DNA of 64,000 bases from Candidatus Angelobacter sp. (lineage in GTDB: Bacteria; Acidobacteriota; Terriglobia; Terriglobales; Acidobacteriaceae): positions 2,286 to 66,285 of the forward strand of contig DASYKK010000017.1 of NCBI GenBank assembly GCA_035995565.1, read 5' to 3'. Below are positions 17,291 through 64,000 of the stretch, piece after piece. Positions within the stretch are counted from its first letter, which is position 1. Every line of letters starts with the position of its first letter. The position numbers were made by a program, and so were the translations under genes. Under the pieces are notes generated by a model. It was not told where the DNA came from. It made no database searches and saw only the letters and a program-made list of their open reading frames with translations.

Positions 17291-17319
17291 TTGACACAAG
17301 AAGAACCTTCGGATAAAAA
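17291..17319 (+). promoter_or_regulatory. candidate sigma70-type promoter (TTGACA-N17-TAAAAA) upstream of the NusG paralogue
   Basis: ttgaca at 17291-17296, an exact 17-nt spacer, and taaaaa at 17314-17319, in an AT-rich 509-bp divergent intergenic region. This is a motif match only. Confidence 0.3.
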
Positions 17320-17535
17320 TGCCTACACTGCGGATGTAGATAATTAAATTTCTTTGATTAGGCTGGCTTCTCGTCCGGAGCTGTAAGGATCATACAGTCC
17401 GGATGGGGCTGCAATGGCGGTAGCCTGTAATGGTGTTGCCATACCTATTGGCATAACAATGTCCTGCTTTTATGAGTTAAAGAGCAGGAAACAATGGGTT
17501 AATCCTGGATAGACTTCAACTTTCGAGGGACTAGG

Positions 17536-21619: not shown

Positions 21620-21656
21620 CCCGCAATCTTAATTGTTTTCTCGGAAAAGGACAGAA

Positions 21657-30106: not shown

Positions 30107-30110
30107 GACC

Positions 30111-31244: not shown

Positions 31245-31246
31245 GG

Positions 31247-32263: not shown

Positions 32264-32323
32264 CAGCATTCAGTGTTCCTCATACCGCTCGCTAGTCTGT
32301 CGTCAGTGCGAGATCATACGGCG

Positions 32324-32688: not shown

Positions 32689-32722
32689 ATTTTATTTTTC
32701 TGACAGATCCCAAGCCGAGAGC

Positions 32723-33703: not shown

Positions 33704-33871
33704 GCGCACTCTTTGAAGAGCTGCGTTCCCAAGTCATTCCAGAAGGCAACACTTCCCAACAGCCCACGGCAGAGTCACCGAAAACAAAGATGGCTGTTCA
33801 TCGTATGTCGCTCGTGGCGATAGGTCTCGACTGAATAATGAACAACTTTGATCGGGGTTATTCCGACTAAT

Positions 33872-38700: not shown

Positions 38701-39075
38701 GCCGACGCAGAGCCCTAACTCAGAGTGCAGCCAGAGCGTTATGCTTTGCGAAGCCACAGAACGGCCGAATATCCAACATGTGCAGAACGATGTGCAGAAC
38801 GACGGGAGCAATGTGGCCAAGACTGTTATCGAAGGTGCTCGCAGCACTAGGAAGCATGGAATTGTAGGAGACTTTGTCGAGCAAGACATTCTGGTGATCC
38901 TTGGCCCTGAGCGTGCCAAAGGTTATCTGACACACCGCCCTGTAATGGAACTGGGGCTGGATTCCATCGAGTTGGTTGAGTTGCGACAGCTCTTGGAAAA
39001 ACGGTTCTCCGTAAAGCTGTCTCCGTCTTTTCTGTTCGAATATGAGACACACGAAAAGATGGTCGAGGCTTTGGT
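35708..39075 (+). other. loading module MT1 - truncated GNAT - MT2 - ACP (AprA-like order)
   Basis: See the motifs above. The GNAT-like segment (~aa 515-620) shows the N-terminal strands (YTVRHACAADLMALTDLD, FVLVMEGQIVAAICC). I cannot find a Q/RxxGxG/A acyl-CoA-binding motif in it. Confidence 0.6.
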
Positions 39076-48170: not shown

Positions 48171-51100
48171 ATGGATAAAGTTGCCCTATTGCTGGACGAA
48201 GTTGCGCAGCTCGGAGTGACGCTCGCTGCAGAGAGTGGGCAGCTTCGGATCAGTGCGCCGAAAGGGACGCTGACCCGCGAACTGCAGCGCCGAGTTGTGG
48301 AAAGCAAAGACGAGATCCTGCGTCGATTGCAGACGGTCGCATTGTCGGTTCCGGTACGTTCCAGCGTTCGCCTGAAGCCGGACCCACTGGGTGACGCTCT
48401 TTCCTTCCCTCTCTCGGACCTGCAATTAGGGTTCTACATTGCCAACGATTCCTATATGGAGTTTCACGTCAGACCCCATTGCTATCTTGAGTACGATTTG
48501 ATTGACCTGGATCCCGTGGCCTACGAAGCGGCTTGGAACAAGATGTTGCATCGCCATCGCCGCGAGCTTTGCACGGTGACCCGCGACATCAAGTTGAAGC
48601 TGCTGAGTGGTGACCCCATCCTTCGATGCCAGATCTACGATTTGCACGGTTCGAACGCCGAAGAAGTTGGTGGCCGCCTGCTGGGCATACGCAAGGAGAT
48701 GAACCGGCAGGAGTTGCCTTTGGATGCCTGGCCGTGGCTGGATCTTCGTATATCGCTATGGACGGAAAACGGCCGGGAGATGGCGCGCGTTCATTACAAT
48801 CATAATAATTTTTTTTCCGATGGCTTCGGGACGATGCAGTTCCTTCACGAGATCGACGAATACTATTCAAATCCTGGCCTGACCTATCCCCCTCTTACTC
48901 TGTCCTATCGCGATGCCGTGCTCGGTCTTGAACGCCTGGACAAATCGGAACTGGGTGGGGCGGCCTACAATTACTGGGCCGCGCGTCTTCCGGGTTTACC
49001 GCCGCCGCCAAGTCTGCCTCAGAAGGCCGGACTTAACCGCCGCTGCAGATCACAACTGGAGCGGAGGGAAGGTGGAATCGAGAAGCCGCTGTGGGATGCT
49101 TTCAAGAGCCGTGCGGCCGCCTTTGGGATCACACCGTCCAACGCAATGATTGCTGCGTATGCCTACGTGATTGTGACCTGGAGCAACTCGGACCATTTCA
49201 TCCTGAGCCAGATGGTAACCCGGCGGTTCGCGGACCTTCATCCAGACCTCACGCGGATGCTGGGCAACTTCGCGTCCCTGTACCCACTGGAAATCAAATT
49301 GAGCGCGTCCGCTTCGTTCGCAGACAACGCGAAGAGGATCCAGGAACAGGTGATGGAGGACATGGAACATCTGCAAATCGGCGGGATGCGGGTCTTGCAG
49401 GAGCTAAATCGTTTGAAGGGTTCTTTCGGAACGGCACCCTCTCCTTTTGTCGTTGGCAGTGGTTTGTCTCTCAAGAAATACAAGAAGGCTGCGTACACCC
49501 TTCTGGAGACTTCGCAAACAGTTCTGGACCATCAATTCTTTGAACTCGAAGATGGCAGCTGCTACTACGTTTGGGACCTAATAGAAGTGTTTTTCCCGGA
49601 GGGCGTAATCGCCCATATGTGGGACGCCTTCAACCGCTTGGTGCACCTTCTGGCCAGCGACAGCAGCGCCTGGCTGCACACCGATTTCGATCTGGTGCAT
49701 GTGCGCGACTTGCGCGATAGGCACGAACGAAACCAGACCGCAGAACCGGTATCTACTTCGGGACTCCATGCGGCCCTCAGCAAAGAGGCAGTGGTCCGGA
49801 GCAATAGCATCGTTCTATTAAGTGCACAAGGTCCGCTGTCGTACGGCGCGCTGGATGCCGAGAGCAATGCGCTCGCCGCAGAGTTGTGGAAAAGGGGCGT
49901 CAGGCGAGGCGATTTGGTCCCCGTAATCATGGATAGGGACAAAGAAATGCTGGTTGCCGTTATGGCCATCCTGAAGGCGGGTGCAGCGTATGTGCCGATC
50001 GACCCGCGCCTGCCGCAGGCACGGATCGCATTGTTGCTGACCAGCGTTGGGTCGCGTCTGGCGGTGACCCAGCCGAAGTACACCGGGCTGCCCGCCTGGC
50101 CTGAAGGCATGACGGTTCTTTGCGGTTCGCTGAACGGGCCCGCTGCCGGAGCGTCGAATGGCGACATATCCTGTACCGCTGGAAACTCAGACTTGGCCTA
50201 TGTGATTTACACTTCAGGTTCGACAGGAACGCCAAAGGGAGTAATGATCTCTCACTGCGGCGCCTTGAACACGATCCTTGACATCAACCGACGGTTCAAT
50301 GTGGGTCCCTCTGACAGGCTGTTCGGCGTGTCGGAGTTTAACTTCGACCTGTCTGTCTACGACATTTTTGGGACCATTGCCGCTGGCGCGTGCCTCGTGT
50401 ATCCAGATCCCGAATCGGCCCAGGATCCCATGCATTGGCTCGAGTTGACCCTGCGGGAGAACATCACAATCTGGAACTCCGTGCCAGCCTTGATGCGCTT
50501 GTGGGTCGAAGCAGCGGAAAGGCGGCGGGCCCGCGTCCCTTCGCTGCGCCTTGTGTTGCTCAGCGGGGACAAGATTCCACTCGACCTGCCGGCCGCAATC
50601 AGACTTATAGCACCGAATGCCAACATTGTCAGTCTTGGTGGCGCCACTGAGGCCTCAATCTGGTCCATCCTTTATCCCATCCAACAAGTGGAACCAACCT
50701 GGGCGACGATCCCATACGGCTACCCCATGGTTAACCAACGCTGGTATGCGCGCGATCGAAATGGAAAAGACTGCCCAACGTGGGTTCCAGGCGAGCTGCA
50801 CATCGGCGGCGTGGGTTTGGCGCAGGGATACTGGCAGGATTCGGAGAAGACTGAACGTAGCTTTTACCTCGATCCGTTGACCGGAGAACGGCTATATCGC
50901 ACTGGTGACCTTGGGCGGTATTTGCCTGGCGGTTGTCTGGAATGGATGGGACGGCTCGATTTTCAGGTGAAGGTGCAGGGGCAACGCATCGAACTCGGGG
51001 AGATCGAAGCTGTGCTGGGGGAGCATCCGTCCATTGTTCAGGCGGTAGTTGTGTTAGAGGAGACCATGGGACGACATGAGCCGAGATTGGTCGGTTACAT

Positions 51101-52364
51101 CGTTCCCAAGGAGGATGCGTGCGTAGAAGTGAAGCACATTGTGTCCTTCCTCCAGAACAAGCTGCCCCCGCATATGTTGCCAACGGCCTGGCGGATGCTG
51201 GAGCGGCTGCCATTAACAGCGAATGGGAAAATCGACAGAAAGGCCCTGCCGAAAACACATTTCATCGCAGATGCGGATTCCCATAAGAAACGAGAGTATG
51301 TCGAGCCCGTTAACGCTATCGAGCAAAGACTGCAAGCGATCTGGGAATCCATTCTCGGCGTCGCGCGAATCGGTGTTACCGACGATTTTTTCGATCTGGG
51401 CGGGCAGTCATTCGATGCCATACGAATTTTCGCGTTGATCAAAGAAGAGCTTGGCCGGGCGTTTACGTTGAGCGACATCTGGCAGGCACGCACGATTCGC
51501 GAGCTTGGGAAGGGCATAACGTGCCCGGAAGACACGCCGCAAATTCACAGAATCGTGCCCATCGATCTAAGAGGCACTGGCGACTCTTTGTTCCTCGTGC
51601 ATCCCGCCGGGGGTTCAGTGATGACGTACACACACCTCGGTGAGCGGATCAATCGTCCACTCTACGGAATACAAGCCTTCCCCAGACTAGATGATACGCG
51701 CCGGCGAACGGATGTCATCGCAATGGCCAAAGAGTACGTTACGGAGCTTAAGCAACACCAACCGGCGGGTGCGTATTTACTAGGGGGTTGGTCGTCAGGC
51801 GCGATGATCGCGTTTGAGATGGCCTCGCAGCTCGAGGCTTCCGGGGAGCGCGTAAATCAGGTGTTCATTCTGGACGGACCAGCGCCGGTCCCGCGCGCCG
51901 ATGTGAGCGATAAGCGCCTGTTGCTCTGGTTCCTGCAGGATCTGGTGCTTGACCTCCCCCTTGAGCGGCTAGAGGGCGAGACCTTCCTGGGCTTGAAACC
52001 GGAGGAGCAGTTGCGCAAAGCGGCTGCACTGTTGAAGGGGCCTGGTATGCTCGGGCTCGATATTGAATCTATGATGGAGAGCTTCCTGGTTTTTAGAGAT
52101 GTCGTCATTGCAGGAACCCGCTATAACCCGACGCGCATTTCCTCCAATTTGACTGTCGTGCGCGTGGAAGACGATATCGTGGACGAGTTCTCCACCCACC
52201 CAGGCCGGGACGCAATCGATTGGGGTTGGAGCCGGTTCACCACAGGAAATGTACGCTGCATACGAGTATCCGGCACACACCACACGTTTCTGAAACAGCC
52301 AATATTGGGGGACTGGTGCGAGCTGTTTAACGGAGCCGAACCTGCCGGCGTGAGGAGGGCGTGA
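48171..52364 (+). CDS. NRPS: TubC-type docking - Cy-like (NxxxxD variant) - A (Cys-type signature) - T - TE
   Basis: Docking-like LLDEVAQLGVTLAAESGQLRISAPKGTLTRELQRRVVESKDEILRRL. Cy1-like FPLSDLQLGFY (48405). NNFFSD (48804-48821) sits where Cy domains have DxxxxD. A motifs: YTSGSTGTPKGV (50209), FDLSVYDIFG, WNSVPAL, SLGGATEASIWSI, YRTGDLGR, LPLTANGKIDR. T GGQS (Ser 51408). TE LFLVHPAGGS and GGWSSGA (Ser 51792). Confidence 0.95.
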   Translation: MDKVALLLDEVAQLGVTLAAESGQLRISAPKGTLTRELQRRVVESKDEILRRLQTVALSVPVRSSVRLKPDPLGDALSFPLSDLQLGFYIANDSYMEFHVRPHCYLEYDLIDLDPVAYEAAWNKMLHRHRRELCTVTRDIKLKLLSGDPILRCQIYDLHGSNAEEVGGRLLGIRKEMNRQELPLDAWPWLDLRISLWTENGREMARVHYNHNNFFSDGFGTMQFLHEIDEYYSNPGLTYPPLTLSYRDAVLGLERLDKSELGGAAYNYWAARLPGLPPPPSLPQKAGLNRRCRSQLERREGGIEKPLWDAFKSRAAAFGITPSNAMIAAYAYVIVTWSNSDHFILSQMVTRRFADLHPDLTRMLGNFASLYPLEIKLSASASFADNAKRIQEQVMEDMEHLQIGGMRVLQELNRLKGSFGTAPSPFVVGSGLSLKKYKKAAYTLLETSQTVLDHQFFELEDGSCYYVWDLIEVFFPEGVIAHMWDAFNRLVHLLASDSSAWLHTDFDLVHVRDLRDRHERNQTAEPVSTSGLHAALSKEAVVRSNSIVLLSAQGPLSYGALDAESNALAAELWKRGVRRGDLVPVIMDRDKEMLVAVMAILKAGAAYVPIDPRLPQARIALLLTSVGSRLAVTQPKYTGLPAWPEGMTVLCGSLNGPAAGASNGDISCTAGNSDLAYVIYTSGSTGTPKGVMISHCGALNTILDINRRFNVGPSDRLFGVSEFNFDLSVYDIFGTIAAGACLVYPDPESAQDPMHWLELTLRENITIWNSVPALMRLWVEAAERRRARVPSLRLVLLSGDKIPLDLPAAIRLIAPNANIVSLGGATEASIWSILYPIQQVEPTWATIPYGYPMVNQRWYARDRNGKDCPTWVPGELHIGGVGLAQGYWQDSEKTERSFYLDPLTGERLYRTGDLGRYLPGGCLEWMGRLDFQVKVQGQRIELGEIEAVLGEHPSIVQAVVVLEETMGRHEPRLVGYIVPKEDACVEVKHIVSFLQNKLPPHMLPTAWRMLERLPLTANGKIDRKALPKTHFIADADSHKKREYVEPVNAIEQRLQAIWESILGVARIGVTDDFFDLGGQSFDAIRIFALIKEELGRAFTLSDIWQARTIRELGKGITCPEDTPQIHRIVPIDLRGTGDSLFLVHPAGGSVMTYTHLGERINRPLYGIQAFPRLDDTRRRTDVIAMAKEYVTELKQHQPAGAYLLGGWSSGAMIAFEMASQLEASGERVNQVFILDGPAPVPRADVSDKRLLLWFLQDLVLDLPLERLEGETFLGLKPEEQLRKAAALLKGPGMLGLDIESMMESFLVFRDVVIAGTRYNPTRISSNLTVVRVEDDIVDEFSTHPGRDAIDWGWSRFTTGNVRCIRVSGTHHTFLKQPILGDWCELFNGAEPAGVRRA

Positions 52365-55300
52365 TGCACGAGCTACTTAGTAGGTTATCTGACCTTAACG
52401 TAAGACTTGAAGTCAGAGCGGGCAAGCTCCATGTGACTGCGGCGCCCGGCGTTGTGACACCTGAGTTGCAGCAGACGATCAGCCTGCAAAAAAAAGCCTT
52501 GATTGAGATGCTTGAGTCGGTTGACGCTCTACCATTACAAAACGAACTACAGCAAATCGTCCCTGACCCGGCGAAGCGCTACGAGGCGTTCCCGCTGAAC
52601 GACGTCCAACATGCCTACTGGATTGGTCGTAGCGCTCATATTGAACTGGGCGCGGTATCCACTCATTTTTACTTCGAGATCCAATGCGGAGCGCTCGATC
52701 TGGGCAGGCTGACGTCATCGTTCCAAAAGGTTTTGAGGATTCATGACATGTTGCGCGCCGTTGTCGACGTGAATGGGCAACAACGCGTCCTTGAAAAGAT
52801 TCCACCTTACGCTATCGCTGTGTCTAATCAGCGGGGTGCCGATCAGCAGCAACGCGAGACTGAGCTTCTCCGGATTCGGTCCGAGATGTCACATCAGGTC
52901 TTCCCTTGCGATCAGTGGCCCATGTTTGACATTCGGCTGGCCCAGATTTCCGATGAACATTCACTTCTATGCGTGAGCTGGGACTTTTTGATGGTCGACG
53001 CATGGAGCATGATGCTTGTGTTTAAGCAATGGTTTGGTTATTACCAGGATCCAGACTACCAGGTGAGTACCCCCAGCATCTCGTTTCGCGATTACGTACT
53101 CGCCGAGGCGAAGTTGAAAGAGCAGCCAGACTATCAAAGATCGAGAGACTACTGGTGGAGCCGGCTCGACCAACTTCCGCCTGCGCCGCAGTTGCCAATG
53201 GTAAGCAACATCGATTTAGGTCGTAAGCACGCGTTCAGACGCCGGAGACTTCAGCTTCCTGCGGATCAATGGGACCTCATCAAGACCCGCGGGCGCCAGT
53301 CTGGAATCACGCCCTCTAGCGTTTTGCTCGCGGCCTTTTCCACGGTTCTCAACCTGTGGTGCAAGGCTCCACACTATTGTTTGAACCTAACCCTATTCAA
53401 CCGGCTTCCTCTTCACCACGAGGTCATGACCCTCGTGGGCGATTTTACGAATTTGATGGCCCTGGAAATTGATGCCAAGGAGCGCTGTAGTTTTGTGGAG
53501 CTGGCCGCCCGAATCCAGGCCCAGTTTCTTCGGGACTATGATCACCGCCAAGTCAATGTCGTGGAGGTATTGCGCGAGCTGGTCAAGCGTCGGGGCTGGC
53601 AGCAGCAGGCAATGCTCCCGGTCGTGTTCAGCAGCACGTTGATGCTGGATGGCAAGAGGAGCGATGACGGCGGGGTGCTGGAAAGATTTGGCCCCATGGT
53701 TTATGGCATCACCCAGACTCCCCAGGTGTGGCTCGATTATCAGATCTTTGAAGTCAACGGCGATCTGGTTATCAATTGGGATGCCGTCGAAGAGGTTTTT
53801 CCACCAGGCGTGCTCGATGACATGTTCGAATCCCATCAGGAACTTCTGCACCTGCTTGTCAGGGACCTCGGCGCTTGGGGGCGGCAAGATCCTGCCGTGC
53901 TGCCCAAAGCTCAGCAGCAAATCCGGGAACGTGTGAACCACACTGCGGCTGAAGTTGTTGACCGGTGCCTCCACGATTTGTTCATCGCAACCGCAATGAA
54001 ATATCCAGACAGGATCGCACTGGCCTGCGACGCTCGCGAGATGCGTTACGGAGAGTTGCTCGCGCACAGCAATCTAGTTGCGGCGCAGCTCATCCAGTGC
54101 GGGGTACGGCCACAGGAACTTGTGGCGGTCGTTATGGGAAAAGGTTGGGAGCAGGTTGTTGCTGCAATGGGAGTGCTGATCGCTGGTGCTGCGTATCTCC
54201 CGATCGAGCCTCACTGGCCCACGCTGCGTCGCAACCATATTCTCGAGCAGGGTGAGGTTCACATCGTTCTAACGCAACCGCCCTTGAACCGGGCATTGGA
54301 GTGGCCATCGAATGTTCATCGGATTGAGGTAGCAACGCAGCAGGGACTGGATCTGCTTACAACTGCTCCGCCCATCCGGCAATCCCCGGAAGATCTGGCT
54401 TACGTCATCTTCACGTCGGGGTCCACGGGCACGCCCAAGGGGGTGATGATCTCGCATCGTAGCGCCGTCAACACGGTGGTTCATGTGAACCGTATGTTTA
54501 ATGTCGGGGCGGGCGACAGAGTTCTGGCGGTCTCGGATCTCACCTTCGATCTATCCGTCTACGACCTCTTCGGAATTCTTTCGGCGGGGGGGACGATCGT
54601 CGTTCCCGATGCCGCGCTTTCCCGAGATCCAAGCCATTGGGAAGACCTGATTCGGCGTCATGAGGTAACGATCTGGAACTCTGCACCGCCCCTTATGGGA
54701 ATGCTCGTCGATGGCTGGGGATCTGACAGTGGCCGCCATCTTTCATCTTTGAGGCTGGTTCTTTTGAGTGGCGACTGGATCCCGGTGCCGCTGCCCGACC
54801 GCATCAGAGGCCTGTCCCTAGGCGCACAGGTTATCAGCCTTGGAGGCGCCACCGAAGGCTCTATCTGGTCGATCTTTTATTCGGTCGAAGAGGTTTCCTC
54901 CGATTGGGAAAGCATCCCCTATGGGAACGCACTACCCAATCAGCATATGTACGTGCTGAACCAGGGGCTCCTGCCCTGCCCGGACCTGGTTACAGGTGAC
55001 ATTTACATCGGCGGCCTCGGGGTAGCGTTGGGGTACTGGAAGGACCCAGAAAAGACAGCCAGGCAGTTCGTCATTCATCCAGAGACCGGCGAAAGGCTGT
55101 ATTACACGGGCGATCTGGGGTCCATGTGCAGGGACGGCAACATCAAATTTCTCGGGCGCGCTGACTCCCAGGTTAAGCTGCGCGGCCATCGCGTGGAACT
55201 CGGCGAGATAGCAACGTGTCTTCAATCGCATCCTGATATTCGTGACGCCGCGATCCGGCTACTGAAGCTAGACAACAGAACAGTTATGACGGCATATGCA

Positions 55301-58300
55301 GTTGTCGACAGAACCGGGCCCGGCCGTCTCTTTGAGCAAACCGAAGTATCCACCGAGGCGCTGCATAAGGCATCCAGCGGAATCGAGGCGGCGGCACGGG
55401 AATTTATCGACGATGCGGACCGGGAAGGACTCCAGAGGTTCTGGTGTTTTTGGCAAGATGTGGAACGTGTGAGCCTTCGCGCCATGCTCGAAACGCTGCA
55501 AACGCTGGAGCTCGTCAACGGCTCAAATGCATTGAGCCGGCTGGACCTGTTGATCGGAAGCGGACGCGTCTTACCGCAATATCGACGTCTAATCCTGCGT
55601 TGGTTTACCGCACTCGTGGATGGGAGACATCTCATTGAACACGATGTGGCTTATACGGTGTCAGGCAGCGGTATTTCCACGGCGGAGAACGTTGAGCACC
55701 AACTCCTCGCGCTGGAGCGGTCGTTCGGCAGCGACGATCGCTTGAAGGGGTTTGTCGAACACGTCGCGAGTTGTCTCCGCAATCATCTTTCGCTACTCTG
55801 CGGCGAAATTAATCCGCTGGAATTGCTCTTCCCGGAAGGGTCTTGGCGCATCGCGGAGTCGCTGTACGAGAGGAATCCTGCTGTGCGGCACCATAACCGA
55901 CTGATAGCTTCGATGGTAAGCGCGTTTGTCGAAACCTTAGACTGCGACAGGAACCTGCGAGTTCTCGAAATCGGGGCCGGTACAGGAGGAACAGCGACTT
56001 CGGTTCTTCCCGTCTTGCCTCCTGCGCGAACGGAATACGTTTACACCGATGTGTCCCCCTATTTTTTTAGTACAGCAAAGGAGAAGTTCAAGTCCTATCC
56101 GTTCGTCCGATACGCGGTTCATGACCTGAACAGGGATCCCAGGGAGCAGGGGCATCAACCCCACAGCTATGACCTGATTATCGCGACTAATATCCTGCAC
56201 AATGGTCGCGACATCAGCGTTGTGCTGCGCGGTATTCATGACCTCCTGAGACCTGGCGGTTACTTGCTGGTGCTGGAAGGTACGCAAACGACACTCTGGA
56301 TGTGGGCTACGGTCGCTTTTCTGGAGGTGGTCCCTACATACACCGATAGTCGCGCCGAATCCGATCAGCCGGCTCTTGGCGTCAAGGAGTGGTTGTCGGC
56401 GCTGACCGGCGCCGGATTCGAAGGTCTGCAGTCCTTTCCGGCGCCCGGCGTCGATCCCTTGTCCGAGCTTTTGACCGCCATGCCGCAGCACGTGATCGCG
56501 GCGCAGGGGTCGGCTCATGCAACCAGGTTCCGACCGGAGGAACTTGCGACCTTTATGCGGGAGCGACTTCCTGACTATATGGTTCCGCAACGGTTCGTGC
56601 TGTTGGACAAACTTCCACTAACCAACAACGGCAAGGTCGATTTGGCTGCGCTGCCCACGGAGAGTGCACTGCCGGATGCAGAAGCGCAGCAGGTTGTTTT
56701 CCCCAGATCCGAAACCGAAGAGCTGATTCTGAACATATGGCGGGACGTGCTTGGTGTGGCACAACTCAGTGTGACCGCTAATTTCTTCGAGGTTGGCGGA
56801 GATTCGCTCCTCATCACTGAAGTCATGCGCAGGTTGAATCGTTCGCGGCGTTCCCCGCTTACGATTGCAGAGCTCTTCTCCTATCCGACAATCCGGAGTT
56901 TAGCGGATTTCTTAAGCGCTGTGCCGGATGCACGCGCGATTCAGCCCACCGCGATTTTGCAAGAGCTGCCGCAGCGAGCCCAGAGGGCATCCGATGCTAT
57001 TGCAGTCATTGGAATGTCTGGCAGATTTCCCGATGCAGAGAATGTTGAGCAGTTCTGGCATAACGTTGCTGCAGGCAAGTGTGCGGTCAGGCACTTCAGC
57101 GATGCGGACCTGTTGCACGCTGGCGTAACCTCAGAAGAGTTGGCCAACCCTAATTACGTGAAGGCAGGTCTTGTCCTCAGAGACATTGATCTATTTGATG
57201 CGGCGTTCTTCGGCTTTACGCCGCGAGAAGCAGAGATCATGGATCCGCAGCAGCGGTTTCTCATGGAGTGCGCGGTTGCAGCGCTTGACACCGCGGGATA
57301 CCCAAGCGAGAAATATGCAGGCAAAATTGGGGTGTTCGTCGGTAAAGGCACAAGCCTGTATCTCCTGCAAAACCTGCTGTCGCGCCCCGATATCATTCAG
57401 CAAGTGGGCTTGTTGCCGATTCTGAACGTCAATGAAAAGGATCACGCGGCGACGCTCATCTCTTACAAGCTCAATTTGACCGGGCCAAGCCTCAACGTGA
57501 ACACGACTTGTTCCACCTCGTTGGTGGCGGTCCACTTAGCGTGCGAGAGTCTGCTCAATCACGAATGTGAGATGGCGCTAGCCGGGGGCGTAAGCTTCGT
57601 TAACTTGCGAGAATCAGGATATTTGTACCAGGAAGGCCAGATCCTGTCGCCCGACGGTATTTGTCGCGCGTTTTCGGATGACGCCAATGGAGCCATGTTC
57701 GGCAGCGGAGTAGGTCTCGTTGTGCTTAAGCCACTTGCCGTCGCGTTGCGTGATGGGGATAGTATCCAGGCGGTGATCAAGGGAACAGCAATCAATAACG
57801 ACGGGGCACTAAAGATGAGTTATACGGCGCCAAGTCTGCACGGCCAGGCCGAGGTGATTGCCAAAGCGCAGGCTCGGGCGGGCATAAGCCCGGATATGAT
57901 TCAGATGATCGAGGCGCATGGTACGGGAACCAGACTGGGTGATCCTATCGAATTTGGAGCTCTGCGGCGCGTCTTCGGGGGACCAAGGCCCGATGGAACT
58001 CATTGTTCTCTGGGTTCCGTGAAAACCAATATCGGTCACCTGGATGCAGCGGCCGGTGTTGCAGGATTGATCAAAGTAGTGCAAGCGTTGAAGCACAAAC
58101 AGATTCCGCCGACTCTGCATGCACGTGTTGCCACCCGCAAAGTTGATTTTGCAGACAGTCCCTTCGAGTTGACGTCGAAGCTGAAGGACTGGCCGGCCGG
58201 CGCGGTTGCCCGTAGCGCGGGCGTAAGCTCCTTTGGCGTCGGCGGGACAAACGCGCACATCGTCGTGGAAGAGTCGCCGCGACCCGAAGAGCGATCCGCC

Positions 58301-60070
58301 GCCACCAGACTCCAACTCCTGCCGGTGTCAGCGAAGAACCCCAAATCCCTGAAAGGGATGCTGCTGGCGCTTGCTGATGAGTTTGGTAAGCGACCTGAGT
58401 CGTCGCTCGAAGATGTGGCATTCACCCTTCAGGTGGGGCGCAACGCCCATCCTTATCGTAGCTATATCGTGTGTAAGGAGTTGTCCGACGCGCAGGGGCA
58501 GTTCGCGAATCCGGAGCGCCTGGTAATCGAACGTCAAAACGAAGGGCTTACGCCCGCAGTTGTCCTTCTGTTTCCTGGACAAGGCTCACAGCAGAAGGAC
58601 GCGACTTACGAACTCTACAAGAATGAGCCAGGGTTCAGAGCCGCGCTTGACGAGTGCGCAGACATCGTGCAGCAGTACACCGGCGAAGACCTCCGCGACT
58701 GGTTGTATACGAAGCGTCCGGCTGCAGCGGTGCGCGGGCGAAACGTGCAACTTGAACAGACGGCTATTACACAGCCTCTGCTCTTTTCAATCGAATATGC
58801 TCTCGCGCGGTTCTGGGAGTCCCTCGGAGTCCGCCCTGTCGCAATGCTTGGTCACAGCATCGGTGAGTACGTTGCAGCCTGCATAGCAGGGGTGTTTTCG
58901 CTTCCTGAGGCGCTTGCGCTTATTGTGGCACGGGGCCGCCTTATCCAGAGTTTGCCGCCAGGTCACATGGTTGCAGTCAGTTGCGGGGAGGAGCAACTTC
59001 GTGGGATTCTCGATGGTTCCCCCTGCTGTCTGGCTGCCGTGAATGGCCCATCGCAATGTGTGGCATCGGGTCCTAGCGCTGATATCACCAAATTGCAAAC
59101 CTGCCTGCAGGCCGCAGGGGTATCAAGCAGCCTCCTGCGAACTTCTCACGCATTCCATTCTCAAATGGTCGCTCCGATTCTCCAGACATTTGAGAACTGT
59201 GTAGGTGAGGTTAAGAGGAGCCGCCCGATGGTACCGTTCATCTCCAATGTCAGCGGTACTTGGATAACTGATGCCGAAGCGATGAGTCCGGCGTATTGGG
59301 CCAGGCACCTGCGCCAAACTGTGCGCTTTGGGGATGGACTACAACAGGTTTTCGGCATAGGGAATCGTGTTTTGCTAGAAGTTGGACCTGGCCGTATCCT
59401 GACCACTTTGGTCAGGCAGACTGATCCCTCCGCGCGTGTCATTCGGTCCTTAAGTAGTGAACGCCCTTCGCAAGGTGAATGGTGGAGCTTCCTAGAGGCT
59501 GTTGGACAGCTATGGCAACACGGAGTAGAAATTGACTGGACTCGCCTTCACGAAGGACGGCAGCCACGACGCATGCCGTTGCCTTCCTATGTTTTCGACC
59601 GTAAGCGCTATTGGGTTGAGAGTCGCGCAAGCGTTGGCCCCGCCTCCGTCGGAGTCGAGGGAACAGCGGAGGCGGTGGCCCAACCTGCCGATGTGACCTT
59701 GTCTCTTGAGAGCCGCGACCGCCACGGTCTGGGGACAGAATTTGTGAGCCCGCGGGATGGAATTGAGGTCAGGCTGGTTGAGATCTGGAAGAGCTATCTT
59801 GGTATCCAGAACATTGGTGTTCGGGATAGCTTCTTCGAACTGGGTGGCGACTCACTTTTGGCTGCTCGAGTCCACTCGCAGATCCGAGAGCAGTTTGACG
59901 TTGAGCTTCCGCTGGCCCGGATGTTCGAATTAGCCACAATTCGACGTATTTCGCTGTACATATCGACCAGCCGTGATCCCGGGCTGATCGATACCCTCCC
60001 CGAACACGACCTGGACGACCTCCTCGCTGTGATGGAGTCGCGTCAGCCTGGAGACGTCCTGACATCTTAG
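52364..60070 (+). CDS. hybrid NRPS-PKS: TubC-type docking - Cy - A interrupted by MT - T - KS - AT - carrier
   Basis: Cy: FPLNDVQHAYWIGR (52589) and DFLMVD (52982-52999). A: FTSGSTGTPKGV (54410), FDLSVYDLFG, SLGGATEGSIWSI, A8 GRADSQVKLRGHRVELGEI (55154), then an inserted MT (VLEIGAGTGG, 55961), then LPDYMVP...LTNNGKVD (56566-56641). T GGDS (Ser 56804). KS NTTCSTS (Cys 57509). AT FPGQGSQ, GHSIGE (Ser 58856) and HAFH (59147). Last carrier GGDS (Ser 59852). GTG 52361 is also possible; GAGGAGGG RBS at 52352. Confidence 0.95.
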   Translation: MHELLSRLSDLNVRLEVRAGKLHVTAAPGVVTPELQQTISLQKKALIEMLESVDALPLQNELQQIVPDPAKRYEAFPLNDVQHAYWIGRSAHIELGAVSTHFYFEIQCGALDLGRLTSSFQKVLRIHDMLRAVVDVNGQQRVLEKIPPYAIAVSNQRGADQQQRETELLRIRSEMSHQVFPCDQWPMFDIRLAQISDEHSLLCVSWDFLMVDAWSMMLVFKQWFGYYQDPDYQVSTPSISFRDYVLAEAKLKEQPDYQRSRDYWWSRLDQLPPAPQLPMVSNIDLGRKHAFRRRRLQLPADQWDLIKTRGRQSGITPSSVLLAAFSTVLNLWCKAPHYCLNLTLFNRLPLHHEVMTLVGDFTNLMALEIDAKERCSFVELAARIQAQFLRDYDHRQVNVVEVLRELVKRRGWQQQAMLPVVFSSTLMLDGKRSDDGGVLERFGPMVYGITQTPQVWLDYQIFEVNGDLVINWDAVEEVFPPGVLDDMFESHQELLHLLVRDLGAWGRQDPAVLPKAQQQIRERVNHTAAEVVDRCLHDLFIATAMKYPDRIALACDAREMRYGELLAHSNLVAAQLIQCGVRPQELVAVVMGKGWEQVVAAMGVLIAGAAYLPIEPHWPTLRRNHILEQGEVHIVLTQPPLNRALEWPSNVHRIEVATQQGLDLLTTAPPIRQSPEDLAYVIFTSGSTGTPKGVMISHRSAVNTVVHVNRMFNVGAGDRVLAVSDLTFDLSVYDLFGILSAGGTIVVPDAALSRDPSHWEDLIRRHEVTIWNSAPPLMGMLVDGWGSDSGRHLSSLRLVLLSGDWIPVPLPDRIRGLSLGAQVISLGGATEGSIWSIFYSVEEVSSDWESIPYGNALPNQHMYVLNQGLLPCPDLVTGDIYIGGLGVALGYWKDPEKTARQFVIHPETGERLYYTGDLGSMCRDGNIKFLGRADSQVKLRGHRVELGEIATCLQSHPDIRDAAIRLLKLDNRTVMTAYAVVDRTGPGRLFEQTEVSTEALHKASSGIEAAAREFIDDADREGLQRFWCFWQDVERVSLRAMLETLQTLELVNGSNALSRLDLLIGSGRVLPQYRRLILRWFTALVDGRHLIEHDVAYTVSGSGISTAENVEHQLLALERSFGSDDRLKGFVEHVASCLRNHLSLLCGEINPLELLFPEGSWRIAESLYERNPAVRHHNRLIASMVSAFVETLDCDRNLRVLEIGAGTGGTATSVLPVLPPARTEYVYTDVSPYFFSTAKEKFKSYPFVRYAVHDLNRDPREQGHQPHSYDLIIATNILHNGRDISVVLRGIHDLLRPGGYLLVLEGTQTTLWMWATVAFLEVVPTYTDSRAESDQPALGVKEWLSALTGAGFEGLQSFPAPGVDPLSELLTAMPQHVIAAQGSAHATRFRPEELATFMRERLPDYMVPQRFVLLDKLPLTNNGKVDLAALPTESALPDAEAQQVVFPRSETEELILNIWRDVLGVAQLSVTANFFEVGGDSLLITEVMRRLNRSRRSPLTIAELFSYPTIRSLADFLSAVPDARAIQPTAILQELPQRAQRASDAIAVIGMSGRFPDAENVEQFWHNVAAGKCAVRHFSDADLLHAGVTSEELANPNYVKAGLVLRDIDLFDAAFFGFTPREAEIMDPQQRFLMECAVAALDTAGYPSEKYAGKIGVFVGKGTSLYLLQNLLSRPDIIQQVGLLPILNVNEKDHAATLISYKLNLTGPSLNVNTTCSTSLVAVHLACESLLNHECEMALAGGVSFVNLRESGYLYQEGQILSPDGICRAFSDDANGAMFGSGVGLVVLKPLAVALRDGDSIQAVIKGTAINNDGALKMSYTAPSLHGQAEVIAKAQARAGISPDMIQMIEAHGTGTRLGDPIEFGALRRVFGGPRPDGTHCSLGSVKTNIGHLDAAAGVAGLIKVVQALKHKQIPPTLHARVATRKVDFADSPFELTSKLKDWPAGAVARSAGVSSFGVGGTNAHIVVEESPRPEERSAATRLQLLPVSAKNPKSLKGMLLALADEFGKRPESSLEDVAFTLQVGRNAHPYRSYIVCKELSDAQGQFANPERLVIERQNEGLTPAVVLLFPGQGSQQKDATYELYKNEPGFRAALDECADIVQQYTGEDLRDWLYTKRPAAAVRGRNVQLEQTAITQPLLFSIEYALARFWESLGVRPVAMLGHSIGEYVAACIAGVFSLPEALALIVARGRLIQSLPPGHMVAVSCGEEQLRGILDGSPCCLAAVNGPSQCVASGPSADITKLQTCLQAAGVSSSLLRTSHAFHSQMVAPILQTFENCVGEVKRSRPMVPFISNVSGTWITDAEAMSPAYWARHLRQTVRFGDGLQQVFGIGNRVLLEVGPGRILTTLVRQTDPSARVIRSLSSERPSQGEWWSFLEAVGQLWQHGVEIDWTRLHEGRQPRRMPLPSYVFDRKRYWVESRASVGPASVGVEGTAEAVAQPADVTLSLESRDRHGLGTEFVSPRDGIEVRLVEIWKSYLGIQNIGVRDSFFELGGDSLLAARVHSQIREQFDVELPLARMFELATIRRISLYISTSRDPGLIDTLPEHDLDDLLAVMESRQPGDVLTS
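55260..56560 (+). other. methyltransferase domain inserted in the adenylation domain between motifs A8 and A9/A10
   Basis: A8 ends at ~55215 and A9/A10 resume at 56566. The ~430-aa insert contains the class-I SAM motif LRVLEIGAGTGGTA and IIATNILHNGRDISVVLRGIHDLLRPGGYLLVLE. Confidence 0.8.
58557..59430 (+). other. acyltransferase domain, malonyl-type motifs; the only AT seen in the window
   Basis: LLFPGQGSQ, MLGHSIGEYVAA and TSHAFHSQM (the HAFH motif is usually associated with malonyl-CoA). Confidence 0.8.
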
Positions 60071-60100
60071 AGCAACCACAAACGAAAGCGAGAATGACTT

Positions 60101-60574
60101 ATGAGAGACGAAAGCCTGCGTACACAAATTTCATTGGCATCGATTACGGTCCTGCTAATTGGTTGTCTGATGTTCGCGTTCATGATTATCGAGAGCGCGC
60201 TGGCAGACAATAACTTCCGGGCATTGCGGCGCGATCCCGGTCTTGGAGCACTGAGAGTTCTCGTATATTTTATCCCCTTCTATGCGTTCGTCCCTCTCTA
60301 TGTGTATTTGGTGGGTGATCTCCGATTACGAGTTTTGCGCTGGGTGGTAGTTGCAATCGCAGGTCTGGGGTTCGTTTTCTGGATACTGCATCACCTGTCC
60401 CACTGGTACTTCGGGGGGAGACCTACCTTTAGCTCGCATGTGATTGACCTGTGTCTCCATACGCTCGGGCTGTGGCTACTCATCAGCTCAATCAAATGGG
60501 CGAGGCTCCCGTTTGCCGCACGTGAAATCGATCGTGCCCCCATTGCTAGCAAGGTAGCTTTGGGGCGAGAGTAG
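60101..60574 (+). CDS. small integral membrane protein (about 4 TM), unknown function
   Basis: Hydrophobic segments ITVLLIGCLMFAFMII, VLVYFIPFYAFVPLYVYLV, VVVAIAGLGFVFWIL and LCLHTLGLWLLISSI. It also has a His cluster, ILHHLSHWY. There is no recognisable family motif. Confidence 0.55.
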   Translation: MRDESLRTQISLASITVLLIGCLMFAFMIIESALADNNFRALRRDPGLGALRVLVYFIPFYAFVPLYVYLVGDLRLRVLRWVVVAIAGLGFVFWILHHLSHWYFGGRPTFSSHVIDLCLHTLGLWLLISSIKWARLPFAAREIDRAPIASKVALGRE

Positions 60575-60580
60575 GGAGTT

Positions 60581-61192
60581 ATGTCTCATATTTCCAGGTG
60601 GCTTTTAATAGGTTTTGGCGTCGCGCTGCTGGCAGCAGCAACGCCCTCAATTGCTTACGCCCATCCAATGGGTCAGGCCGCGGACGGCTTCAAGAGTGGA
60701 CTCTTGCATCCGGTATTCGGTCTTGATCATTTTCTTGCCATGTTGAGTGTGGGAATCGTAAGCGCACAGCTCGGTCGAGAAAGGATATGGACAGTCCCCG
60801 GAATGTTCGTTCTAGCTATGATTGCCGGCGCAGTCCCCGGTATCAAAGGCGAAATATGGCGCTTCTCTGAAGCTGGGATCGCTAGCTCCATGATCGCGCT
60901 CGGTGCCGCAATAGCCACCGTGACAGAAAAAGTCAGAAGTTGGCCTGTACTGCTCATGGTGGCTGGGTTCGGAAGCCTGCATGGGCACGCGCATGGCATC
61001 GAGCTACCGAAAGCCGCCGATCCCATCTACTACGCGTTTGGTTTCCTAACCAGCACAGTCGTCATTCATTTACTAGGGGTGGCCATTGGCCACCTATTCA
61101 CCAACAGATGGCCACTCATCGTCCTGCTTCGCCACGTAGGATCGGGGATTGCGGGCATGGGTTTGATGTTCTTGAAGTTGGCGGCCAGCTAG
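60581..61192 (+). CDS. HupE/UreJ-family metal (Ni/Co-type) permease
   Basis: The signal peptide ends ...SIAYA, followed by HPMG. GLLHPVFGLDHFLAMLSVGIVSAQ is the HupE/UreJ signature, and GSLHGHAHG is a further His cluster. Confidence 0.85.
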   Translation: MSHISRWLLIGFGVALLAAATPSIAYAHPMGQAADGFKSGLLHPVFGLDHFLAMLSVGIVSAQLGRERIWTVPGMFVLAMIAGAVPGIKGEIWRFSEAGIASSMIALGAAIATVTEKVRSWPVLLMVAGFGSLHGHAHGIELPKAADPIYYAFGFLTSTVVIHLLGVAIGHLFTNRWPLIVLLRHVGSGIAGMGLMFLKLAAS

Positions 61193-61193
61193 A

Positions 61194-62840
61194 ATGCCCC
61201 TCAGCTCAGTGCAATTTGATGACATTGTTGTTGGCGGTGGAACAACAGGTGCGGTGATTGCGTCACGTTTAAGTGAAGATCGGGAAAGGCGCGTGCTGCT
61301 GCTCGAGGCCGGACCTGATTACCCCGATACACTCCCAAACGAGTTGCTGGATGCTTCCTATGCCGTAATAAACGGGCACAATTGGAATATGCAGGCCGTT
61401 GTCCGGGAAGGCAGCCCAGCGATGACAGGTTCGCGGGCGCGGGTAACCAAAGTCTTTGATCACTTATCGAGCTTTTTAGAACCAGAAGCGAAATCGCAAC
61501 AATCCTGGTTGGGCCGCCAAGCCACCATGTTTCCGTATCCATTGGGTAGGGTCATGGGTGGAGGTTCGGCAATCAACGGGTGCATGGCTCTGCATGCCAG
61601 ACCGGAAGATTACGCGAGATGGGCAGTGGCTGGCGGCGACGCGTGGAGTTGGGAGCGCGTCCAGCCCTACATGAGCCGTATTACAACCGCGGATAGTAGC
61701 AAGTCGGCGGTGCCGATTGAGACGGCCGCACCCGAAGATATCACTCCATGCCAGAGAGCATTTCTGGAAGCCTGCCAAGCCCTGGGAAACCGCGAAGTCA
61801 ACCTAAGTCAAGGCACCATCGCGGGAGTGGGTACGATTCCAAAGAGTGTCCGCAAAGGCCAGAGAGTCTCAACCGCCACACTCTATCTCGCGGCGGCGCG
61901 AAACCGCTCGAATCTGACAATACGATCCAACTGTATGGTTGACAGACTCATTTTGGAACGCAGTGATGGCTCGCTAATGGCGACAGCTGTCGAAGCGCTC
62001 GTCGACGGCGTGCGATGCCGGTTTTCCGGCGGGCACATAACTATCTCCGCCGGAGCGATCAACTCACCTGCAATCCTGCTGCGTTCCGGAATTGGCGCGA
62101 CAGGCGAGATTGTGCGAGGCAATTTAACGCCAATGCTTGATCTTCCCGGTGTAGGCAAGAACCTGCAGGATCACCCTTCCGTGAGCATATGGGCCACACC
62201 CCGGCAGGGGTCTTGTCTTGCGGGCGAGCCAGTACATCAGTTGATGGCACAGCAAAGATCTACAGCCTCCGAAAAGCTTTGTGACGTCCAGGTCTACATG
62301 CTTAGCGCGATGCCAAGTCAGGATCTTCAGGGGCTTCAGCAGATGACTGGTTCAGATCTCGTGCTGGGTGTCTCCGCAGTGATTGCGACACCAAGCTCCA
62401 GGGGACATATAGAAGTGGCTAATGGCGATGCCACAACGAATCCGCGCATCTATCTCAATTGCCTAGAGGACCCCGAGGACTTGCGAAGGATGATGGAAGG
62501 CGTGCGGGCGGCGTGGCGAATGTTACGCGGAGGGCCTCTCGATATTCACATTGATCGAATTCTGTTGTGGACCCAGAACATTATTGATTCCGACGTGTTG
62601 CTTGAGAATCTGATTCGAGCCACGGTTCGGGTAGTCTGGCATCCAGTCGGAACTTTGCGTATGGGTAAGGAAGGTGACGCCATGGCAGTTGTGGATCCGT
62701 GCGGACGGCTCTACGGATGTCTAAACGTTACCGTGGCCGACGCGTCCATCCTGCCCACCGTTCCAAGCGTCCCACCGAATCTGACCTGTATGCTTATCGG
62801 CGAGCGTATCGCTGCCGGCATGCGCGGGCTGGAAGCCTAG
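61194..62840 (+). CDS. GMC-family FAD oxidoreductase (choline-dehydrogenase-like)
   Basis: FDDIVVGGGTTGAVIASRLSED (FAD GxGxxG), GRVMGGGSAINGCMALH, the C-terminal WHPVGTLRMG active-site His region, and DASILPTVPSVPPNLTCMLIGERIA. Confidence 0.9.
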   Translation: MPLSSVQFDDIVVGGGTTGAVIASRLSEDRERRVLLLEAGPDYPDTLPNELLDASYAVINGHNWNMQAVVREGSPAMTGSRARVTKVFDHLSSFLEPEAKSQQSWLGRQATMFPYPLGRVMGGGSAINGCMALHARPEDYARWAVAGGDAWSWERVQPYMSRITTADSSKSAVPIETAAPEDITPCQRAFLEACQALGNREVNLSQGTIAGVGTIPKSVRKGQRVSTATLYLAAARNRSNLTIRSNCMVDRLILERSDGSLMATAVEALVDGVRCRFSGGHITISAGAINSPAILLRSGIGATGEIVRGNLTPMLDLPGVGKNLQDHPSVSIWATPRQGSCLAGEPVHQLMAQQRSTASEKLCDVQVYMLSAMPSQDLQGLQQMTGSDLVLGVSAVIATPSSRGHIEVANGDATTNPRIYLNCLEDPEDLRRMMEGVRAAWRMLRGGPLDIHIDRILLWTQNIIDSDVLLENLIRATVRVVWHPVGTLRMGKEGDAMAVVDPCGRLYGCLNVTVADASILPTVPSVPPNLTCMLIGERIAAGMRGLEA

Positions 62841-62940
62841 GCGAGGAACGCGGTACCCTTCGCCCTAAATGCAGCTGGTTTTCCGAAATCGTGCGGAACT
62901 TTCAATGACACATAATAAGAAGGAGCGCTTGCGCAGCCTC

Positions 62941-64000
62941 ATGGCGTCTACTGCCGTTGTGACCCGAGTTCCGTTGGTCGCGCGGCGGCTGCGGACTTCG
63001 GAGCTAGAGCCTTTGTCATTTGCACAACAGGGTCTCTGGTTTGTGTCGCAACTGGAGGGACCAAACCCCGCCTACAACAATTCGATCATCATTCGAGTGT
63101 CCGGGGCTCTGGACGTGGAAGCACTTAATCGAGCTGTCTCCCATGTCGTCCAACGCCACGACTCGTTGCGGACGAGGTTCGTGGAACGCGGGGGTGTTCC
63201 AAGCCAATTCTGTGAAGACATCGCGGAAGTGCGAATGGATGTGCAATGGGTGACCTCAGCGGAGCTAGATGCTGTATTGCTTAGCGAAGCCCGGCGTCCC
63301 TTCGAAATGGGAAAAGACCGACTTTTCCGCGTGCGGCTGTACAAGGAATCGAGCGAGCGTTTTGCCTTCGTGGTCAGCATGCACCACAGCATCTCGGACG
63401 CTTGGTCCGTCGGTTTGTTTATACGTGAGATGGTGTCGCTTTATGACGCTTATAGCAATGGAAGTGATCTGTCACTCAATGCGCTTCCAGTAACGTACCT
63501 CGATTATGTGCATTGGCAACGCGACTGGCTCGACAGTGGGGTGCTTGAGCGCCAACTCGGGTATTGGCGAAGTCAGTTGAAGGATCTTTCTCCGCTGGCA
63601 CTGATACGCCCTGACTTGCCGCTCGTCCGGCCGCATAGCACCCGTGGCGGCGCCGTGGAGTTCGCAGTGCCGCTCCAGCTTTTGAAGCATCTGAAATCCC
63701 TGAGCAATGAGCACTGCTGCTCACTTTTTGTGACATTACTTGCAGGACTCGCCGTTGTTTTGAATCACTATTCATCGCGGCGCGATATCGCAATCGGAAC
63801 GGGGGTATCCAATCGGCGAAGCACAGAGCTTGAAGGTCTGATCGGCTACTTTGTCAACACTTTGGTACTCCGTCTTGAGTTGTCGCCGGATATGTCATTC
63901 ACATCCGTGCTAAGGGCTGCACGTGATGTGTTAACTCAAGCGTTGGAGAACCAGGATGCCCCTTACCATCGAGTCGTTCAAGAGTTGCGGCCGCAAAGAA
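62941..64000 (+). CDS. NRPS, N-terminal condensation domain; continues past the window edge (absent from the supplied ORF track)
   Basis: My own translation gives MASTAVVTRVPLVARRLRTSELEPLSFAQQGLWFVSQLEGPNPAYNNS...MHHSISDAWS...YLDYVHWQRDWL...GLIGYFVNTLVLRL..., with no stop to nt 64000. AAGGAG lies at 62919. An alternative in-frame start is ATG 62905. Confidence 0.85.
   Translation, partial: MASTAVVTRVPLVARRLRTSELEPLSFAQQGLWFVSQLEGPNPAYNNSIIIRVSGALDVEALNRAVSHVVQRHDSLRTRFVERGGVPSQFCEDIAEVRMDVQWVTSAELDAVLLSEARRPFEMGKDRLFRVRLYKESSERFAFVVSMHHSISDAWSVGLFIREMVSLYDAYSNGSDLSLNALPVTYLDYVHWQRDWLDSGVLERQLGYWRSQLKDLSPLALIRPDLPLVRPHSTRGGAVEFAVPLQLLKHLKSLSNEHCCSLFVTLLAGLAVVLNHYSSRRDIAIGTGVSNRRSTELEGLIGYFVNTLVLRLELSPDMSFTSVLRAARDVLTQALENQDAPYHRVVQELRPQR

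Follow-up and report, generated by a model that had tools for sequence, protein, structure and literature searches.

The 64,000-nt stretch of DNA from Candidatus Angelobacter sp. analysed here (the window, to which coordinates refer unless a locus is named) carries a large biosynthetic cluster of non-ribosomal peptide synthetase (NRPS) and polyketide synthase (PKS) genes. The subject of this report is a short cassette embedded between two of its megasynthase genes, which encodes a small membrane protein designated TM157, a HupE/UreJ-type metal permease (HupE) and a GMC-family oxidoreductase (GMC). The original prediction had seen two membrane proteins in this interval; both are located exactly where it put them, but a third gene, GMC, shares the interval with them. 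The cassette and its flanks, annotated with the help of Pfam, which was run on nearly all large open reading frames (ORFs) of the window, read as follows:

52361-60070, + strand: hybrid NRPS-PKS with a TubC-type docking domain followed by Cy, A with an embedded methyltransferase, T, KS, AT and T (Pfam)
60101-60574, + strand: TM157, 157-aa four-helix inner-membrane protein (ORF and homologues)
60581-61192, + strand: HupE/UreJ-family divalent-metal permease, 203 aa (Pfam PF04955)
61194-62840, + strand: GMC-family FAD oxidoreductase, 548 aa, no signal peptide (Pfam GMC_oxred_N and GMC_oxred_C)
62905-64000, + strand: next NRPS, beginning with a C domain, of which only the start is present as it runs off the window end (translation, gene calls on identical contigs)

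The genes are tightly packed. The hybrid stop codon lies 30 nt ahead of TM157, the GMC start codon is 1 nt past the HupE stop codon, and the complete series of gaps along 60070-62905 is 30, 6, 1 and ~64 nt. Since promoter-like or terminator-like signals in this interval do not exceed shuffled expectation, TM157, HupE and GMC are most likely co-transcribed with the megasynthase genes. They are also co-inherited with them as part of the large NRPS-PKS cluster.

About 30 homologous clusters contain the cassette; they come from Terriglobia, Thermoanaerobaculia, Holophagales, other Acidobacteriota and one gammaproteobacterial lineage. This answers the call of the original prediction to look for the permease in syntenic clusters. 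Exact HupE copies reside on three other metagenome contigs with neighbours identical in kind, and all HupE homologues at 58-86% identity that have sufficient flanking sequence are found in the cassette after an orthologous Cy-A(MT)-T-KS-AT-T gene. A search seeded with TM157 yielded 17 further metagenome loci, and HupE follows TM157 in 16 of them; the apparent exception, L103, shows the gammaproteobacterial order GMC-TM157 on a short contig, where HupE would fall upstream of the sequenced part. The order of the genes varies within limits: TM157 is directly upstream of HupE in the Acidobacteriota loci and comes after GMC in the gammaproteobacterial loci L107 and L110 and probably in L103, while in L096 the GMC gene is relocated upstream with TM157 and HupE still adjacent to each other. 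GMC stands beside the TM157-HupE pair in all syntenic loci.

Of the genes in this region, HupE generally shows the highest conservation. Across the compared loci its identity is 60-86%, whereas the megasynthases range over 59-69% and TM157 over 44-66%; in the comparison with L004, HupE reaches 81%, the synthases 69%, GMC 65% and TM157 57%. Neighbour-joining places the 25 unique cluster-linked HupE sequences in a single clade that excludes 73 others, and none of the 75 HupE relatives at 50% identity or less that were inspected in GTDB species genomes has TM157, GMC or the cluster NRPS genes nearby. A functional link between HupE and the cluster is thus well supported. The membrane genes might instead be passengers with no functional tie to the cluster, and a damaged HupE in one lineage (see below) would fit such hitch-hiking; however, the cassette is kept across two phyla, through changes of gene order, and is better conserved than the synthases. 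Taken together with the conservation of HupE and its single clade, this synteny makes hitch-hiking very unlikely. None of the literature searched describes a permease of the HupE type within an NRPS cluster.

The HupE permease

The assignment of the 203-aa protein to the HupE/UreJ family, made in the original prediction from the sequence alone, holds in full: it matches the Pfam HupE_UreJ profile PF04955 with 157.8 bits (cut-off 23; E=2.6e-46) over profile positions 3-178 of 179, and the strings quoted at the time are all found in it (within AYA/HPMG, HPVFGLDHFLAM and LHGHAHGIE). A predicted Sec signal peptide would be cleaved at TPSIAYA/HPMG so that the mature protein would begin at His28, a residue which is invariant in 29 cluster-linked homologues. 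The permease contains both the HPxxGxDH motif (H43-P-V-F-G-L-D49-H50) and the HGxxHGxE motif (H134-G-H-A-H138-G-I-E141). Its AlphaFold2 model is confident (pLDDT 91.6), and a fold search against the PDB found no solved structural relative.

The archetype for comparison is the HupE protein of the Rhizobium leguminosarum hydrogenase cluster (CP090108.1), which belongs to the same Pfam family and is 39-44% identical to the window protein. The two share the signal peptide that leaves an N-terminal histidine (His28 aligns with AHA/H of the Rhizobium protein) and both motifs, and H43, D49, H50, F76, E97, H138 and E141 of the window HupE correspond to H36, D42, H43, F69, E90, H130 and E133 in Rhizobium. 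These seven Rhizobium residues are reported to be essential from mutagenesis, and their numbering agrees with the alignment. Rhizobium HupE is strongly inhibited by Cu2+. The window HupE differs from it in genomic context, having NRPS-PKS genes as neighbours instead of those for hydrogenase or urease, and in being paired with the new His-rich membrane protein TM157. Judged by its sequence, the window HupE is an intact metal-ion permease that has been kept with the cluster, and transport is its predicted role here.

HupE/UreJ proteins are secondary Ni/Co transporters with Ni-specific and Co-specific branches (PMC2667541), and the related HupE/UreJ_2 family is found fused to Cu-binding periplasmic domains (PMC12537917). 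Nickel or cobalt would therefore match the family best, and copper or zinc are candidates as well; given the two branches, the Cu-binding fusions and the inhibition of the Rhizobium protein by Cu2+, the sequence points to no single metal.

The original prediction had described HupE proteins as normally linked to hydrogenase or urease genes, and had noted that neither occurs near the window HupE. The second statement is correct: the 64-kb window contains no hydrogenase, urease or B12 system that would place a Ni/Co enzyme beside the permease, and no B12 riboswitch. The first applies to the Rhizobium archetype but is too strong as a rule, since urease and hydrogenase families are absent from the 25 commonest neighbour families of 37 non-cluster HupE relatives. 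The commonest neighbours (n=147) are DUF6512 (13) and DUF1007 (7). Many of the non-cluster relatives (L013-L087; for example L032:10501-11151 and L059:10605-11246) precede a conserved membrane protein of ~215 aa with the motif LHFAFELS...SVNESxWEHLKLYFWPG, which is probably the DUF6512 family.

Another idea is that HupE supplies a cofactor, importing nickel, cobalt or another metal for an enzyme of the pathway, and so serves biosynthesis instead of the function of the product. HupE genes elsewhere do adjoin the metalloenzymes they feed, as in the R. leguminosarum [NiFe]-hydrogenase cluster, and the window cluster includes several poorly annotated enzymes at 29198-33703 that might serve as clients. 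On the other hand, annotation of the window revealed no family of Ni- or Co-dependent enzymes, the immediate partners of HupE are a flavoenzyme and a membrane protein, and the receptor gene inside the gammaproteobacterial clusters (see below) would be left unexplained; we consider cofactor supply a distinctly unlikely explanation.

TM157, an NRPS-associated membrane protein family

TM157 had been described as a 157-aa protein with four transmembrane helices and an HHLSHW motif, and this description stands. The ORF is a real gene with 15 close homologues in which HHLSHW is invariant, and its AlphaFold2 model (pLDDT 82.5) consists of four long helices. It has zero matches in Pfam and NCBIfam, and a profile search of 1.84 billion representative proteins retrieved 85 cluster representatives, each ~140-170 aa in length. 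Attempts to attach TM157 to something familiar failed: a Foldseek search against the PDB gave no match with E<0.28, only generic four-helix bundles, and hhalign assigned a probability below 1% both to TM157 being a fragment of HupE, to which it has no detectable homology, and to a relationship with the DUF6512-type proteins that follow non-cluster HupE genes.

The hallmark of TM157 is a conserved cluster of histidine and aspartate residues (H97, H98, H101, H113, D116 and H120) located where helix 3 ends and helix 4 begins, which is predicted to face the periplasm according to the positive-inside rule. In the family alignment (n=65) H97 is present in 65/65 members, H101 in 62/65, D/E116 in 55/65, H120 in 49/65 and H119 in 42/65, a metal-ligand-like pattern. 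All HupE-linked members read HH[LM][SA]H[WL], followed, where readable, by ...SH..D...H. Position 98 is more variable, with H in 29, Q in 22 and E in 12 of the 65 sequences.

A different function was also considered, namely that TM157 is a haem or quinone anchor or a juxtamembrane metallohydrolase that forms a membrane redox or processing unit with GMC and acts on the product, with HupE in a role beyond ion uptake such as product handling. GMC is always in the cassette, the TM157 bundle has paired histidines in helices 3 and 4, its weak fold matches include VKOR-type quinone reductases (TMq ~0.5), and 12 of the 65 family members read HExxH. However, the fold matches are not significant (E >=0.28), the H/Q/E variation at position 98 makes a general HExxH protease family unlikely, in L096 TM157 stays beside HupE and not GMC, and HupE retains all of its ion-binding residues; moreover, no HupE member is known to carry organic substrates. 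A redox or processing unit of this kind is therefore improbable.

GMC itself has no signal peptide, falls below each cut-off of the NCBIfam equivalogs and has alcohol, HMF and choline oxidases as its best PDB relatives; its probable role is that of an alcohol oxidase or dehydrogenase in tailoring.

Beyond the cassette, TM157 members with a readable neighbourhood mostly adjoin NRPS genes, and this extends to clusters that have no HupE cassette. At L106:5155-8370 three tandem TM157 paralogues are encoded between an NRPS ending in TE and a multicopper oxidase with a twin-arginine translocation (TAT) signal and the motifs HWHG, HPHPH and HCHNLEHED, an arrangement which hints at a link between the TM157 family and copper. 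The TM157 copy of L112 comes directly after what is probably an NRPS reductase domain (judged by sequence alone), one database protein is a chimera that starts with docking and Cy domains and ends as TM157, and the member at L105 stands beside an unannotated protein. The association of the family is thus with NRPS products generally rather than with HupE alone. On sequence evidence, TM157 represents a new, small and unannotated NRPS-associated membrane family with a conserved metal-ligand-like site.

The cluster product as a proposed metallophore

The chemistry of the product can be approached through the megasynthases. In addition to the hybrid gene, two upstream genes are informative:

35708-48127, + strand: 4139-aa PKS whose loading module is AprA-like (AprA_N, winged helix, MT2-like domain), with two more KS modules (Pfam)
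48171-52364, + strand: NRPS with a docking domain, divergent Cy-like domain, A, T and TE (Pfam)

The original prediction had counted two thiazoline-forming modules and regarded them as a hallmark of metal chelators of the pyochelin/yersiniabactin class. One of the two is canonical: the Cy domain of the hybrid carries an intact DxxxxDxxS motif (DFLMVDAWS), and the best PDB relatives of the hybrid are BmdB, FmoA3, PchE and the EpoB and HMWP2 Cy domains; the closest solved modules (BmdB, PchE, EpoB, HMWP2) are thiazoline-forming ones, including those of pyochelin and yersiniabactin. The other is less certain, as the Cy-like domain at 48171-52364 has NxxxxD with the first Asp replaced by Asn and is 29% identical to the canonical Cy; the A-domain motifs of this protein agree with those of the adjoining module, both being Cys-type. 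To call thiazolines a hallmark was an overstatement, since they are not diagnostic of chelators. Although its gene lies in mid-cluster, the Cy-like-A-T-TE protein probably forms the terminal module, and three megasynthases (22187, 48171 and 52361) begin with a TubC-type docking domain; thus, the order of assembly probably differs from the order of the genes. An aryl (salicylate) cap is not indicated, the window having no salicylate synthase and the loader being AprA-like (MT-GNAT type) and not an aryl carrier. AprA-like loaders make branched alkyl (tert-butyl-type) starters in cyanobacteria. The presence of such a loader in an Acidobacterium was unexpected. Orthologues of the next NRPS in L004 and L108 are 2557-4315 aa long. 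A TauD-like gene at 31247-32263 was considered as an isonitrile-forming ScoE-type enzyme and dropped, as it has zero PDB sequence matches.

The strongest support for a metallophore comes from outside the Acidobacteriota. A smaller gammaproteobacterial version of the cluster occurs on two contigs, L107 from a 'Pseudomonadota' metagenome-assembled genome at NCBI and L110, a 333-kb JGI contig, in the order Cy-A-T-TE, Cy-A-T-KS-AT-T, HupE, GMC, TM157, TonB-dependent receptor and a convergent two-module NRPS. The receptor gene is located directly after TM157, between biosynthetic genes and not at the cluster edge, and a receptor within an NRPS cluster is a classical sign of re-uptake of the compound (PMC12971057). 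Its closest relatives are common in Xanthomonadales, which suggests that it was recruited locally. A 70%-identical receptor closes a different NRPS cluster after two fused ABC half-transporters, and a 63%-identical one in Stenotrophomonas (L111:6001-10302) comes directly after a histidine-utilisation operon and adjoins a second receptor gene. The L107 receptor (12684-14762) has a His-Gly run, THGHGHGYTD, early in the protein.

The best single explanation, at odds that we judge to be about even, is that the thiazoline-containing product of the cluster serves as a metallophore for a divalent transition metal; the cassette suggests a metal other than iron. In such a scheme the product would be made by the megasynthases and exported, with the MacB-type and ABC pumps of the cluster as candidate exporters, and would bind its metal outside the cell. 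The complex would re-enter through a TonB-dependent receptor, encoded in the gammaproteobacterial versions and located in none of the Acidobacteriota clusters; the metal would then be freed in the periplasm, and the ion would cross the inner membrane through HupE, whose ion-binding residues are conserved and whose transport role is predicted. TM157 could take the metal from the ligand or pass it to HupE, which is speculative, and the simplest view of the cytoplasmic GMC flavoenzyme is that it may act as a tailoring oxidase. The more specific proposal that TM157 and HupE form the inner-membrane end of an uptake route for an NRPS-PKS-made Ni or Co (or Cu) metallophore is tentative, and we hold it to be possible rather than probable.

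A competing explanation is self-protection, in which the product is a metal-sequestering or ionophoric antibiotic directed at competitors and HupE, with TM157, provides the producer with the metal withheld by the compound or buffers it against its own product. Candidatus Angelobacter clusters with efflux pumps (MacB, ABC) and without uptake markers have been read as tools of interbacterial competition (PMC9723581), TM157 relatives occur in HupE-less NRPS clusters as might be expected of an immunity-type protein, and a borderline TM157 relative is encoded between a TetR regulator and a glyoxalase/bleomycin-resistance-type gene. The P0217 match behind this last point is weak, however (E=2.8e-4 in the TM157 profile search), and the receptor inside the gammaproteobacterial clusters points to re-uptake and not to pure export. 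Self-protection also needs a metal-binding product and hence overlaps with the metallophore proposal; as an account of its own it strikes us as doubtful.

Several observations weigh against a metallophore. The receptor evidence stems from one lineage and two contigs whose receptors are 83% identical, and a search for receptor homologues in all retrieved flanks and the window found L107 and L110 only. As the original prediction had noted, the window has no TonB-dependent receptor, and it likewise lacks a periplasmic binding protein and a FecCD permease (Pfam, and a receptor hidden Markov model run on six-frame ORFs); the same three transporter types are absent within 10 kb of the cassette in every Acidobacteriota locus, and no receptor was found within 35 kb upstream in the Acidobacteriota clusters. 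The downstream flanks examined are 10 kb, and the next NRPS genes in Acidobacteriota (up to 7672 aa) extend past them. A published rule for siderophore-like clusters asks for at least two of the transporter families PF00593 (TonB-dependent receptor), PF01032 (FecCD) and PF01497 (periplasmic binding protein) (PMC12971057); all three are absent from the window, and PF00593 alone is present in the gammaproteobacterial L107 and L110. The authors of a survey of Candidatus Angelobacter clusters likewise reported none of the uptake markers and leaned towards a competitive function (PMC9723581). Pfam revealed no classical genes for building a chelator (salicylate, catechol, hydroxamate) in the window. 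The candidate sources of chelating groups are one canonical Cy module, one divergent Cy-like module and a weak TauD-type match. Thiazolines are found in many non-chelating natural products. Signals of metal-dependent control were not found either: there is no Fur-box match (<=3 mismatches), four promoter regions contain no palindromes, the sites of acidobacterial regulators not being known, and no Rfam family reaches threshold anywhere in the window that might indicate riboswitch or other RNA control of HupE. In one Thermoanaerobaculia-type lineage, represented by two independent assemblies (L012:2795-3229 and L097:6407-6841), an in-frame 54-aa deletion takes out the HGHAHG helix pair of HupE and leaves TM157, GMC and the synthases beside it intact, and HupE is thus dispensable or decaying there. 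Lastly, the TM157 relatives in NRPS clusters without HupE make an obligate TM157-HupE machine unlikely. The metallophore idea of the original prediction is strengthened by the synteny of HupE and the in-cluster receptor of the gammaproteobacterial version, but it stays conditional, with no receptor located for the Acidobacteriota.

Comparison with characterised systems shows what would be familiar and what would be new. As in the pathways of yersiniabactin and pyochelin (with FyuA/YbtPQ and FptA/FptX as uptake systems), the window cluster has modules for Cys-derived heterocycles, with PchE and HMWP2 among the closest solved relatives, a methyltransferase embedded in an A domain, a TE-terminated Cy-A-T module and, in its gammaproteobacterial variants, a TonB-dependent receptor. 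It differs in that the assembly line is much larger and has an AprA-like loader instead of a salicylate starter, that the proposed inner-membrane step is an ion permease where those systems use an ABC or MFS importer for the intact complex, and that no receptor was found in the Acidobacteriota clusters. A precedent for the two-step logic is the Helicobacter nickel route via the TonB-dependent FrpB4 and the secondary permease NixA, which likewise combines an energised outer-membrane receptor with a small secondary permease for Ni at the inner membrane; unlike the system proposed here, it involves no dedicated NRPS-made ligand, and NixA is a NiCoT protein and not a HupE.

Yersiniabactin-type ligands also serve non-iron metals (PMC8636617, PMC10136090), and the opine metallophores staphylopine, pseudopaline and yersinopine (Cnt) handle Ni, Co and Zn with biosynthesis and uptake encoded in one operon (PMC5719457, PMC10136090). 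The latter are, however, small ligands made by CntKLM-type enzymes, their complexes are carried by ABC or TonB-dependent transporter (TBDT)-type systems, and no NRPS, PKS or HupE takes part in the Cnt systems. The 'Anglerase'-HupE/UreJ_2 fusions, in which a periplasm-facing N-terminal His site is proposed to feed a HupE-type channel (PMC12537917), indicate that the superfamily can couple to Cu-binding modules; they are PF13795 proteins with a fused soluble domain, whereas the window pair consists of a PF04955 protein and TM157 as a separate four-helix partner.

Soil Acidobacteria such as Candidatus Angelobacter harbour many huge NRPS-PKS clusters of unknown function, which are thought to serve competition because they were reported without the usual siderophore markers (PMC9723581). 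The HupE cassette offers one family of these clusters a concrete and testable function in trace-metal handling, and its gammaproteobacterial carriers provide an experimental handle, as culture or expression should be easier with them. If the proposed uptake route were true, it would be the first assembly-line 'nickelophore/cobaltophore' system and the first metallophore cluster to use an ion permease and a His-cluster membrane protein that strips metal in the periplasm, in contrast to import of the intact complex, and some of the enigmatic Candidatus Angelobacter clusters would serve trace-metal acquisition. HupE and the TM157 family would then be new marker genes for non-iron metallophore clusters, which present genome-mining rules miss because they rely on three transporter families only (PMC12971057).

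Extent and surroundings of the cluster

The biosynthetic cluster is continuous from ~17.5 kb to the window end. It opens with a NusG-like regulator and a type II thioesterase; next come a MacB-type pump, a peroxiredoxin and several NRPS parts, and then an ABC exporter, the 4139-aa PKS, the Cy-like-A-T-TE NRPS and the Cy-A(MT)-T-KS-AT-T hybrid. Four of the accessory genes are listed here:

17536-18084: NusG-like (KOW-type antiterminator) gene at the upstream cluster edge
19211-21619, + strand: MacB/FtsX-type efflux permease within the cluster (Pfam MacB_PCD, FtsX)
21633-22190: AhpC/TSA peroxiredoxin, flanked by the MacB pump and the cluster's first NRPS gene
33848-35659, + strand: fused ABC permease/ATPase with exporter fold within the cluster (Pfam ABC_membrane, ABC_tran)

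The NusG-like protein may be a processivity factor for very long operons, and the MacB/FtsX-type permease is a candidate exporter of the product. The fused ABC protein has only generic MsbA-like NCBIfam matches, each below cut-off. Enzyme candidates in the window include the weak TauD-type Fe enzyme, an acyl-CoA-dehydrogenase-like flavoprotein, a KAS III-like protein and a nucleotidyltransferase-like protein.

Positions 14972-17026 (- strand), immediately before the cluster, encode a DNA polymerase of family A that includes a 3'-5' exonuclease domain. The GC content drops to 0.47 at 16001-18000, around this gene, compared to ~0.55 elsewhere, and the low-GC stretch with the polymerase may mark a cluster boundary or an insertion. 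Further upstream are an EntS-like MFS exporter (5267-6709, - strand; below the NCBIfam cut-off) and an OEP/HlyD/MFS tripartite efflux set (10082-14565), which together lie 3-12 kb upstream of the cluster.

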